Below are positions 42,784 to 47,308 of a DNA stretch of 64,000 nt, one piece after another. Source of the stretch: Escherichia phage MN01; sequence record MT129652.1. One strand, 5' to 3'. Made by a program: the position numbers and the translations under genes. The notes under the pieces were generated by a model that did no database searches, was not told the origin of the DNA, and was given only the letters and a program-made list of their open reading frames with translations. Numbering within the stretch: position 1 is the stretch's first letter; every line of letters begins with the position of its first letter.

Positions 42784-43059
42784 ATGGTATACAAGGTTTG
42801 GACGTATATCTCTATTTTGATATTTCTGGTTCTGGTTTTTGTTCCTATGCAACAGGACCAGGAAAGGTATGAGCGCGAAGTCGAAATCGTGGCAAGTACC
42901 TATCACTCGTTCAATAAAGAGTGTCCTAATAAAAATGGAATAAGCCTGCAACAAGCATACTATTTGTCAACGGTCACCAGTCCAAAACAACGGGTCTGGG
43001 TCGAACGTAATTTTGCAAGTTTATTTTCAGAGTACTGCTTTAATTTTAAACGTTTATAA
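42784..43059 (+). CDS. membrane-anchored protein, hypothetical
   Basis: 91 aa; N-terminal transmembrane segment. Confidence 0.45.
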   Translation: MVYKVWTYISILIFLVLVFVPMQQDQERYEREVEIVASTYHSFNKECPNKNGISLQQAYYLSTVTSPKQRVWVERNFASLFSEYCFNFKRL

Positions 43060-43131
43060 ATACAGTTGCTAACTAGTATTCCGCTATGTTAAGGCTGCAA
43101 AGCGTAATCATGACCAACAATAGGAGTCCTT

Positions 43132-43425
43132 ATGGACCTTATTCGAGGACTTTCATTAAGTCTAATAATCCTGGGCTGTTTAGGTCCAAATCTGTCCTCT
43201 GCAGCAGAGGGGAAGTTTACCCAATATGCAGATAGTGCGATGAAGATTTATTCGCAATTCAAAGAACCAAGCGTACATCAATCCGAACAGTTCTGGGCAT
43301 TTATCAAGACTGAATGGAACAACAAAAGCCAATGCGAAACCGAAATCACCTGCAAAAGCGATGGTAAAGCTGCGGCGAGAGAGTATGCTAAATTAATGAA
43401 GGTAAAATTGGAAGATGAAATTTGA
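43132..43425 (+). CDS. rI: lysis inhibition regulator RI-like (antiholin)
   Basis: 97 aa, same length as T4 RI; signal-anchor N-terminus; FWAFIKTEW..C..C..KLMKVKLE resembles the T4 RI periplasmic domain. Confidence 0.65.
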   Translation: MDLIRGLSLSLIILGCLGPNLSSAAEGKFTQYADSAMKIYSQFKEPSVHQSEQFWAFIKTEWNNKSQCETEITCKSDGKAAAREYAKLMKVKLEDEI

Positions 43426-43798: not shown

Positions 43799-43803
43799 TT
43801 CAA

Positions 43804-43831
43804 AAGGTCTGCCTTCGGGTGGACCTTTTTT
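43804..43831 (+). terminator. rho-independent terminator followed by an early promoter cassette
   Basis: AAGGTC..GACCTT stem plus T6; downstream GTTTAC and conserved leader before the ATG at 43900. Confidence 0.6.
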
Positions 43832-43899
43832 CATTTAGGGGGTTTACATCCTCATAAAAAGGGTGTACTATTATCCCATCAACTACTGAGGAGAACACA

Positions 43900-44343: not shown

Positions 44344-44526
44344 ATGTTAACTACTGAACAGATTGAACAAATCCTTAAACTTGCTACTGCTATTGAACGC
44401 GATTCTTATGATAGTGCAGTAGAACATTGTGAAGGCTATTCATATTCCGGAATAGAGCAGTGTAAACGAGATTTAGCGAATTCTAAAGCAGCATTGGTTG
44501 AGTATCTGAATGAGTTGAAAGAATAA
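44344..44526 (+). CDS. hypothetical protein
   Basis: 60 aa ORF. Confidence 0.4.
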   Translation: MLTTEQIEQILKLATAIERDSYDSAVEHCEGYSYSGIEQCKRDLANSKAALVEYLNELKE

Positions 44527-44783
44527 TGGCTGTTGGATTTGCAAAAGATGGTGCTGAACAGTTAGAGATGGAAGCGGTTGTACAAGCCGCTATCATCCAT
44601 GCGAGAGCACAGGTTACAGTTGAAAGGGAGTCTGCTGAATTCTGCTTTGACTGCGACGAAAAAATTCCTGAAGCGCGGAGACAAGCGATTAAAGGTGTGA
44701 TATATTGTGTTGGTTGTCAATCAATGCATGATGAAATTTTTAAACGTGAGCCACGTAACTGCTGGCATAGGAGCATGAGATGA
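44526..44783 (+). CDS. TraR/DksA-type C4 zinc-finger protein
   Basis: CFDCDEKIPEARRQAIKGVIYCVGCQ matches the TraR/DksA zinc-finger pattern Cx2Cx17Cx2C with the conserved IPEAR. Confidence 0.6.
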   Translation: MAVGFAKDGAEQLEMEAVVQAAIIHARAQVTVERESAEFCFDCDEKIPEARRQAIKGVIYCVGCQSMHDEIFKREPRNCWHRSMR

Positions 44784-44874
44784 TTTACTATCTTGAACCT
44801 TGGGCTTGGCTTACAATGCTTATTGGTCCAGTTTTAATAGGTTTATTCTTTTCATGGTTAGCGAGGAAACTGTA

Positions 44875-45072
44875 ATGTTATACGACCCAAGTGGTAATTC
44901 TGAAGACGGTATTATTGTCCTTTTGGCAGATGTTGAAGAGTCTGACGATGACATTTTTGTTAAAGATTGGGAAGAAAAAGGCGGAATAACAATCCAGCAA
45001 GAAAATGATATGATTTGTCTGAATGCGAGCCAAGTCGAAGAACTGTACAGTATTTTAAAACACAACCGTTGA
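44875..45072 (+). CDS. small acidic protein, hypothetical
   Basis: start moved to the Met after GAGGAAA. Confidence 0.4.
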   Translation: MLYDPSGNSEDGIIVLLADVEESDDDIFVKDWEEKGGITIQQENDMICLNASQVEELYSILKHNR

Positions 45073-47113: not shown

Positions 47114-47308
47114 CAAAGAAATCAAGGTCTTCTTATCATACGGAAGACCTCATAAAGGCCGCCGATGGTATCTCGAAGCAGTCTGTCGAGAAACTGGTCG
47201 TCGAATCAATATCAAGTACACATGCAAACCAACACCCAAGCAAACTCGCAGGTTTGCTAATTGGGCTATCAATAATATCAGATTCCATAATTTTTGGAGT
47301 GCAATCTA

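Follow-up and report, generated by a model that had tools for sequence, protein, structure and literature searches.

Does a small zinc-finger protein encoded by a phage of the T4 type act on the RNA polymerase (RNAP) of its host, and if so, in what manner? This question is raised by a gene in a 64,000-nt stretch of DNA from Escherichia phage MN01 (sequence record MT129652.1), referred to here as the window. In the ORF listing, positions 44526..44783 on the plus strand hold an ATG start, 85 codons, and a TGA stop at 44781-44783, with the translation MAVGFAKDGAEQLEMEAVVQAAIIHARAQVTVERESAEFCFDCDEKIPEARRQAIKGVIYCVGCQSMHDEIFKREPRNCWHRSMR. The initial annotation had reported an 85-aa ORF with a C4 zinc finger at these positions, and both the ORF listing and the cysteine pattern agree with it. 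The pattern, CxxC-x17-CxxC, lies in the peptide CFDCDEKIPEARRQAIKGVIYCVGCQ (residues 40-65) and has the same spacing as that of TraR (C37/C40/C58/C61), and its four cysteines (C40, C43, C61, and C64) are unchanged in an alignment of 58 homologues.

44526..44783, plus strand: complete gene for a YbiI/TraR-type zinc-finger protein (ORF list; Pfam, PHROG, and NCBIfam matches; public cluster P0001)
44643..44717, plus strand: C4 zinc ribbon, C40-x2-C43-x17-C61-x2-C64 (sequence; cysteine invariance; Pfam match to residues 38-66)

The 85-aa protein is a member of the DksA/TraR C4 zinc-finger superfamily. A search with Pfam PF01258 (zf-dskA_traR), proposed earlier as a check of the annotation, matches residues 38-66 with 36.2 bits (E 5.9e-9), above the gathering score of 24.9, and PHROG 54, 'DksA-like zinc-finger protein', matches with an E-value of 4.6e-20. 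Together, these matches rule out chance as an explanation for the cysteine pattern. The assignment itself is routine, and the family label for near-identical proteins is already public in GenBank and PHROGs. GenBank names such proteins 'TraR family C-4 type zinc finger', 'DksA C4-type domain-containing protein', or 'hypothetical protein'; the copy in phage VR7 is ORF106c, a 'hypothetical protein' similar to JS98 ORF095c, and the public protein cluster P0001 is 98% identical to the protein described here. A table published in 2006 already lists a dksA/traR Pfam match in the T4-like phage 44RR (ORF130c), and this table is the only mention of DksA-like proteins of T4-like phages that was found in the literature (PMC1524935).

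Below the superfamily level, sequence comparison places the protein in the YbiI branch and not in TraR proper. Of the solved structures, that of E. coli YbiI (2KGO) is closest in sequence (E 1.6e-9, with residues 1-69 aligned), and TraR in its RNAP complexes (5W1S and 6N57, E ~1e-4) comes next. The top NCBIfam model, PRK11019 (NF008243; 'DksA/TraR family C4-type zinc finger'), scores 75.3 bits without reaching its cut-off of 96, and its match spans residues 1-71 only, leaving the tail outside. The models for the TraR subfamily (TIGR02419, 52.2 bits), the TraR equivalog (NF010268, 29.4 bits), and DksA (NF033459, 12.8 bits) fall under their cut-offs of 59.7, 108, and 105, respectively. The earlier assignment to the TraR/DksA family holds at the level of the superfamily, where Pfam and PHROGs, the solved structures matched by sequence, and the fold match to RNAP-bound TraR concur, but not in detail, since the protein groups with YbiI in the structure search and scores below the cut-offs of the TraR models.

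E. coli YbiI and the phage protein are of one length class (88 and 85 aa, respectively) and have the same layout of a single helix, a zinc ribbon, a short helix, and a tail. They are also alike in the N-terminal signature MA.G[FW]A.D.A and the IP.ARR motif. They differ in the tail, which is YNRRGSKDSQLR in YbiI and FKREPRNCWHRSMR in the phage protein, in a one-residue insertion before the first cysteine of the phage protein, and in setting, the phage gene lying in an early-gene context while E. coli ybiI has been placed in an iron-metabolism operon (PMC2613031). No published biochemistry was found for the YbiI branch, for which the sole experimental statement found is a remark that overexpressed YbiI rescues dksA auxotrophy ('data not shown'; PMC2613031). 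DksA has the C4 zinc-finger Pfam domain in common with the phage protein, together with the secondary-channel binding mode of the superfamily, but it is 151 aa long, depends on ppGpp, and has a two-helix coiled coil whose tip bears the DxxDxA motif (PMC9239242).

The AlphaFold2 model (mean pLDDT 73) contains a helix at residues 8-29, the zinc ribbon, and a second helix at residues 62-71. Confidence is low for the tail and for residues 1-7, the latter being unstructured with a pLDDT below 50.

44547..44612, plus strand: predicted long N-terminal helix, residues 8-29, counterpart of the TraR N-helix (AlphaFold2; Foldseek on 6n57_M; PMC6970531)
44709..44738, plus strand: predicted C-terminal helix, residues 62-71, counterpart of the TraR C-helix (AlphaFold2; PMC6970531)

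In Foldseek searches, the top match by E-value is YbiI (37% identity), and the model superimposes on RNAP-bound TraR (6n57_M) with a target-normalised TM of 0.82 and an rmsd of 1.9 A over 69 columns; DksA in RNAP complexes (7khi_M and 5vsw_M) is matched weakly. TraR is a ppGpp-independent regulator that binds the secondary channel of RNAP, and in cryo-EM its N-helix is seen in the channel, with the beta' rim helices carrying the globular zinc domain and beta lobe-Si1 the C-helix (PMC6970531). The model of the phage protein predicts the same three-element layout of N-helix, C4 zinc globular domain, and C-helix, without a coiled coil. The coiled coil implied by the initial annotation is absent, and in its place stands a single N-terminal helix, as in TraR and YbiI. 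The residues of helix 62-71 are not conserved with TraR, and a tail of 14 residues that TraR lacks extends beyond it.

The features of TraR regarded as key are the DxxDxA tip, the C4 zinc site, R48, R49, and the C-terminal helix; R48 contacts the beta' rim helices, R49 contacts beta' Si3, and the C-terminal helix contacts beta Si1 (PMC9239242). At only 26-29% identity overall, the phage protein and F TraR (5W1S, 6N57) are identical at 12 of the 20 residues across PIPEARRKIFPGVTLCVECQ, R48 and R49 included. In the HMMER alignment, IPEARR of the phage protein faces PIPEARR of TraR, with I47, P48, R51, and R52 invariant.

44664..44681, plus strand: IPEARR, residues 47-52, with R51/R52 as the equivalents of TraR R48/R49 (HMMER alignment to 5w1s/6n57; PMC9239242)
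44526..44561, plus strand: N-terminal signature MAVGFAKDGAEQ, residues 1-12, at the place of the TraR DxxDxA tip (alignment; codon variation; tip comparison)

The tip itself is a different matter. The protein begins M-A-V-G-F5-A6-K7-D8-G9-A10-E11-Q, with FAKDGA in place of DxxDxA, and its stretch ahead of the Asp is two residues longer than that of TraR. Lambda Orf73 and VP882 Orf61 begin M-x-D-x-x-D-x-A (DxxDxA at residues 3-8), while P2 Orf82 has DxxDxI. The N-terminus of TraR, which we take to be M-x-D-x-x-D-x-A as well, agrees with the published positions of S2, D3, and D6. Counted from the first cysteine, D8 and A10 can face TraR D6 and A8, in which case F5 replaces D3; D8 stands 32 residues ahead of the first cysteine, where YbiI has a spacing of 31 and the TraR group one of 29-31. 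The best-case register matches only the second Asp and the Ala of DxxDxA, and the ungapped HMMER register (offset 3) matches no position of the motif. The register against TraR is, on these alignments, ambiguous by one residue, and the motif is broken in either. The initial annotation had tied the activity of the protein to residues at the tip of the coiled coil, and of these no more than the second Asp and the Ala are retained. S2 of TraR already lies 4.3 A from the catalytic Mg (PMC6970531), and in VP882 TraR both Asp residues of DxxDxA are needed for growth suppression. Among the five TraR homologues that have been tested, P2 Orf82 and Xenorhabdus Gp34 carry an incomplete DxxDxA (Gopalkrishnan et al. 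2022, PMC9239242), and these two still inhibited rRNA promoters, though less strongly (PMC9239242).

Both ends of the protein are strictly conserved, each in its own way. The signature MAVGFAKDGAEQ, in which MA.G[FW]..D is present, is invariant in the phage clade and is common to the bacterial YbiI-type N-terminus MAGG[WF]AKDGAVQ, which continues as MAGG[WF]AKDGAVQ[ED]QID. Bacterial YbiI-type proteins end in the near-invariant YNRRGSKDSQLR, the last nine residues of which, RGSKDSQLR, are found in 53 of 68 bacterial loci, with single conservative changes in the rest. This canonical tail is also present in dozens of unrelated phages whose protein bodies are 35-50% identical to the query and whose N-termini vary, including Karamvirus- and Slopekvirus-like T4 relatives, T4-like phages of Acinetobacter and Aeromonas, and jumbo phages of Erwinia and Dickeya. 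In the window's clade, the N-terminus is still of the bacterial type and the tail has been exchanged.

44739..44780, plus strand: clade-specific basic tail FKREPRNCWHRSMR, residues 72-85, replacing the YbiI tail YNRRGSKDSQLR (alignments; residues 77-85 invariant)

The clade tail, FKR.PRNCWHRSMR, and the canonical tail are of equal length and both basic, and are otherwise unrelated. A frameshift origin was considered and rejected, as the other two frames of the canonical tail DNA of nine phages hold nothing like NCWHRSMR. The clade was found in phages of Enterobacterales only, and every sequence seen to carry its tail was a phage genome or a contig of phage size with the label of an Enterobacterales assembly.

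That the ORF is a real gene is evident from its codons and its position. In a comparison of 22 clade copies, taken from T4-like phages of Escherichia, Klebsiella, Enterobacter, Citrobacter, and Yersinia and from jumbo phages of ~350 kb such as 121Q, the reading frame is unbroken in every member. Residues 2-12, A17, V18, A26, R27, S36, and the four cysteines are invariant in all 22, as are I47, P48, E49, R51, R52, G57, Y60, Q65, D69, F72, R74, and 77-85. These invariant residues use 2-6 synonymous codons each (2-4 per invariant residue in the N-terminal 12 amino acids), and at both termini synonymous change is saturated while the amino acids stay the same. The zinc-finger gene is under purifying selection, and this codon usage, together with a syntenic position kept in many T4-like genera, is why we regard 44526..44783 as a real gene.

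Homologues were found by tblastn in 762 phage records, mostly of large virulent phages (T4-like and jumbo), including those of Klebsiella (275), Escherichia (106), Acinetobacter (67), Erwinia (63), Aeromonas (48), and others. In many genera of the Straboviridae, the homologue occupies one slot between rI/rI.-1 and nrdC.11. The syntenic region of T4 (mobD.3, mobD.2a, and mobD.2) gave no tblastn match and no recognisable translation, so a remnant of the gene in that region was rejected. Mosigvirus carries a 54-aa chimera, PHROG 25948, in which the N-terminus of the ORF094c-type gene from downstream is followed by the final 29-31 residues of the zinc-finger protein. With no copy in the syntenic region of T4 and only a shortened form in Mosigvirus, the gene is accessory and not core. 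On the bacterial side, the YbiI-type profile retrieves 2,788 cluster representatives at an E-value of 0.001 or better, and a single N-terminal pattern places YbiI-type proteins in at least 526 species. The bacterial genes have a single recurrent neighbour, DUF6445, which follows them directly in 19 of the 80 loci; as a clue to the function of YbiI it was set aside as too narrow, the examples inspected being Xanthomonas-group genomes.

The TraR type has a different range among phages. With F-plasmid TraR as the query, 121 phage records were found, and among the 12 matches listed nearly all are genomes of ~29-38 kb, such as P2-like phages, VP882, and a Mannheimia phage. Lambda Orf73, P2 Orf82, and VP882 Orf61 are, like the protein of the window, phage-encoded and small; they are expressed with early or lytic genes and have been proposed to divert host transcription capacity to the phage, and with lambda Orf73 the host grows more slowly and bursts are larger (PMC9239242). 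These TraR-type proteins are 73-74 aa long, tailless, and carried by temperate phages (121 records), whereas the YbiI type of the window belongs mainly to large virulent phages, both T4-like and jumbo (762 records).

When, then, would such a protein be made? The DNA surrounding the gene is 86-94% identical to that of the Gaprivervirus/Dhakavirus-type T4-like phages TH44, UPEC07, SP18, and VR7, and by this measure the window is that of a Gaprivervirus/Dhakavirus-like T4-type phage. The gene lies inside a block with the order tk - rI - rI.-1 - mobD.5 ... mobD.1 - nrdC.11, where it is flanked by a mobD.3 homologue and a 31-aa hydrophobic ORF in records of the TH44/UPEC07/SP18/VR7 type. The tk-rI-mobD-nrdC region is early and dispensable.

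43802..43829, plus strand: strong terminator-like hairpin with a 12-bp stem and T run, closing the preceding rI/rI.-1 unit (sequence scan)
43842..43871, plus strand: T4-type early-promoter match GTTTACA-N17-TACTAT, ~650 bp upstream of the gene and conserved in relatives
44524..44528, plus strand: TAATG overlap of the mobD.3-homologue stop and the zinc-finger gene start (sequence; likewise in VR7 and UPEC07)
44769..44783, plus strand: AGGAG in codons R82-S83, followed by an ATGA stop/start overlap (sequence)

A generic sigma-70 scan of the region was at background, with 21 matches found and 18 expected, and for this reason only the GTTTAC-type match that is conserved in relatives was used. T4, VR7, UPEC07, and others have the early-promoter motif in the homologous intergenic region, and in the more distant T4-like phages L033 and L039 a motif of this kind lies immediately 5' of the homologue. 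The transcript that includes the zinc-finger gene likely starts at this match, from which nine closely packed ORFs extend to a terminator-like site at 47308. Neither a middle promoter (MotA box plus -10) nor a late promoter (TATAAATA) was found between 43800 and 44526; motifs of these types are present only upstream of rI. Judged by its promoter motifs, we infer that the zinc-finger gene is expressed early. A weak Shine-Dalgarno sequence, and no strong one, precedes the gene, and the TAATG overlap suggests translational coupling to the mobD.3 homologue. At the other end, AGGAG provides the ribosome-binding site for the 31-aa hydrophobic ORF that follows (44780..44875), whose start lies in ATGA. 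No partner gene of the kind that QisA represents for VP882 TraR co-occurs with the gene across genera; mobD.3, the 31-aa ORF, and the ORF094c homologue accompany it only in the closest genera and not clade-wide.

Taken together, these observations make it rather probable that the protein is an early-made binder of the RNAP secondary channel which alters initiation kinetics without ppGpp and depresses the promoters of rRNA and ribosomal-protein genes. By analogy with TraR, the protein would be made early from a promoter of the sigma-70/T4-early type, and its N-terminal helix (residues 8-29), with the invariant MAVGFAKD tip in front, would enter the secondary channel of the host RNAP. R51 and R52 would hold the zinc-ribbon domain on the beta' rim helices and beta' Si3, with the C-terminal helix and basic tail placed toward the beta lobe/Si1. 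This would depress promoters whose open complexes are short-lived, such as those for rRNA and ribosomal proteins, and would free polymerase and nucleotides for phage transcription. This reading is favored because of the superfamily match, the fold match to TraR, the invariant R51 and R52, and the activity of TraR homologues with an incomplete tip, and also because of the reported dksA rescue by YbiI, the selection on the gene, the early-type promoter upstream, and the recurrence of the same rI/nrdC.11 slot in many genera. RNAP binding, the direction of the regulatory effect, and the benefit to the phage are presumed here from homology. Against the reading stand the missing DxxDxA, the two extra residues ahead of the Asp and the ambiguous register, the TraR and YbiI NCBIfam models below their cut-offs, and a tail that is modelled at low confidence and is unlike TraR and YbiI alike. 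T4-type phages also carry several other modifiers of RNAP, which makes the need for the zinc-finger protein less evident.

Other explanations deserve to be weighed against this one. The ORF could be a remnant that is decaying or without function and plays no part in infection, as might be suspected from its absence in the syntenic region of T4, from the Mosigvirus chimera that holds just the last 29-31 residues in 54 aa, and from the weak Shine-Dalgarno sequence. This is hardly credible, however, for a gene whose frame is intact in 22 of 22 clade members and whose key residues stay invariant through 2-6 synonymous codons each, a pattern which by itself makes decay very unlikely; the gene is furthermore present across unrelated phage groups, the ~350 kb jumbo phages among them, and the TAATG overlap would give it translational coupling. 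A functional protein might still occupy the secondary channel without working like TraR, acting as a plug or competitor that excludes DksA/ppGpp, GreA/GreB, or host YbiI, and might in this way shield phage transcription from the host stringent response; or it might inhibit catalysis directly in place of reprogramming initiation at rRNA promoters. The tip speaks for such a role, being [FW]xxDxA and not DxxDxA, with an aromatic residue, two extra residues, and the first Asp missing, and so does the invariance of the MAxG[FW] N-terminus across phage and bacterial YbiI-type proteins. Rnk provides a precedent for a non-regulatory occupant of the channel (PMC9239242), and VP882 TraR requires the Asp residues of DxxDxA to suppress growth. 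On the other hand, P2 Orf82 and Gp34 inhibited rRNA promoters despite their incomplete motifs, if less strongly (PMC9239242), the reported rescue of dksA auxotrophy by YbiI calls for a positive DksA-like activity beyond occupancy (PMC2613031), and the position of residues 1-7 is not readable from an AlphaFold2 model in which they are unstructured with a pLDDT below 50. We consider simple occupancy or inhibition of this kind unlikely, if not strikingly so.

A further departure from the modulator would be that YbiI-type proteins primarily target something other than RNAP, with the zinc ribbon as a scaffold and the invariant termini binding another conserved host component; the phage clade would then have exchanged its tail to change or evade that partner. 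The tails lend this some appeal, given that 68 bacterial loci and dozens of unrelated phages, the latter with bodies of only 35-50% identity, have RGSKDSQLR almost without change, that the phage-clade tail is equally invariant, and that TraR works without any such tail. A role of YbiI in iron metabolism was suspected by authors in 2009 (PMC2613031), a second phage protein is bound in a complex by VP882 TraR without need of the RNAP-binding motif of that TraR, and some C4 zinc-finger proteins classed as DksA/TraR are unlike DksA in their behaviour (PMC9239242). Yet the residues with which TraR contacts RNAP (R48, R49, and the IPE motif) are invariant across the YbiI branch, and the fold fits RNAP-bound TraR better than anything else in the PDB. 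Nor does gene neighbourhood point to a partner, as none co-occurs with the phage gene across genera and the recurrent bacterial neighbour, DUF6445, is confined to 19 of 80 loci, with the inspected examples from the Xanthomonas group. A primary target outside RNAP is, on this evidence, improbable.

If the RNAP-modulator reading is right in its central point, the binding of RNAP, then virulent phages of the T4-like and jumbo kinds can redirect the transcription of their hosts by a route independent of ppGpp, in addition to the host-RNAP modifiers known from T4, and T4 itself would apparently be without such a factor in the corresponding region. TraR-type regulation has so far been tested only for the plasmid protein and its temperate-phage and prophage homologues. 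The YbiI branch is large, with the 2,788 cluster representatives and 762 phage records given above, and its invariant termini and tail swap define simple mutants. The tail swap and the strict conservation of both termini amount to modest new leads and to no new kind of system. A bolder possibility, which we hold to be doubtful, is that YbiI-type proteins form a distinct class of secondary-channel factor, whose N-terminus could reach or occlude the active site and whose C-terminal peptide could bind a second site; a lineage of virulent Enterobacterales phages, that of the window included, would in that case have swapped YNRRGSKDSQLR for NCWHRSMR to retarget the protein or to escape host control.

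The Mosigvirus chimeras retain only the clade tail, which may hint at an activity of the tail itself.

The C-terminal peptide YNRRGSKDSQLR is nearly invariant in YbiI-type zinc-finger proteins of bacteria from many orders, and equally so at the C-termini of homologues in many unrelated phages (L026-L084 and L089-L168). Outside this tail, the identity of YbiI-type homologues falls to 35-50%. Both TraR and DksA lack a tail of this type. The zinc site itself is varied in some phage homologues (L052, L060, L061, L084; L066, L069, L071, L074; and further similar loci). In some of these proteins His replaces Cys as the fourth zinc ligand (YCVAHQ, YCIEHQ, YCIKHQ), and homologues of the Erwinia/Dickeya jumbo phage type have CxxxxC (CVNPDCG) rather than CxxC as the first ligand pair.

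A 54-aa chimeric ORF is found in Mosigvirus genomes (Escherichia phage PNJ-6, L004:2459-2623; also proteins P0048, P0049, P0056, P0059, and P0063) and constitutes the family PHROG 25948. Its N-terminal part, MLYDYTGKSEDGVLELLPESAEDDM, is similar to the beginning of the ORF094c-type gene that lies downstream in the window (44875..45072). This part continues in frame into VVIYCVGCQSMHDEIFKREPRNCWHRSMR, the final 29-31 residues of the zinc-finger protein. The chimera's tail is identical to that of the window's zinc-finger protein, with four codon differences between the two, all synonymous. Only two zinc ligands are kept in the chimera, and one variant is short of one more (YYVGCQ).

Several features surround the zinc-finger gene in the window:

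43036 (region 43036-43062), MotA-box core TGCTTTA
43055 (region 43036-43062), T4 late-promoter consensus TATAAATA
43802-43871, terminator-like hairpin with a 12-bp stem, followed at once by GTTTACA-N17-TACTAT
44780-44875, strongly hydrophobic 31-aa ORF MIYYLEPWAWLTMLIGPVLIGLFFSWLARKL, whose start codon overlaps the stop codon of the zinc-finger gene (ATGA)

The ribosome-binding site of the 31-aa ORF sits within the last codons of the zinc-finger gene, and the ORF is conserved across relatives from Gaprivervirus, Dhakavirus, and Mosigvirus (83-100% identity). The motif that follows the hairpin matches a T4-early-type promoter, and T4, VR7, and UPEC07 carry the same early-type motif at the homologous rI.-1/mobD.5 intergenic site. 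The rI homologue (43132..43425) is preceded, at a distance of ~70-95 bp, by the MotA-box core and the late consensus, and these sequence matches would fit both middle and late expression of rI.

In 19 of the 80 bacterial loci, the ybiI-like gene is followed directly by a DUF6445 gene in the same orientation, those inspected being Xanthomonas-group genomes. One such gene is listed here:

L117:4332-4940, DUF6445 protein of ~200 aa (Pfam PF20043, E 2e-13), also present at 18 other bacterial loci

In E. coli, ybiI reportedly clusters within an iron-metabolism operon (PMC2613031).

In the annotation tables of UPEC07 (L001) and the T4 RefSeq record (L003), product names were apparently carried over from gene symbols. 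Several of the mobD.x ORFs that neighbour mobD, a mobile endonuclease gene, bear the name 'molybdopterin-guanine dinucleotide biosynthesis protein MobD'. In UPEC07, the mobD.1 homologue is named 'thymidine kinase' and small ORFs are named 'valyl-tRNA synthetase modifier' or 'endoribonuclease'; these labels look like annotation artefacts.
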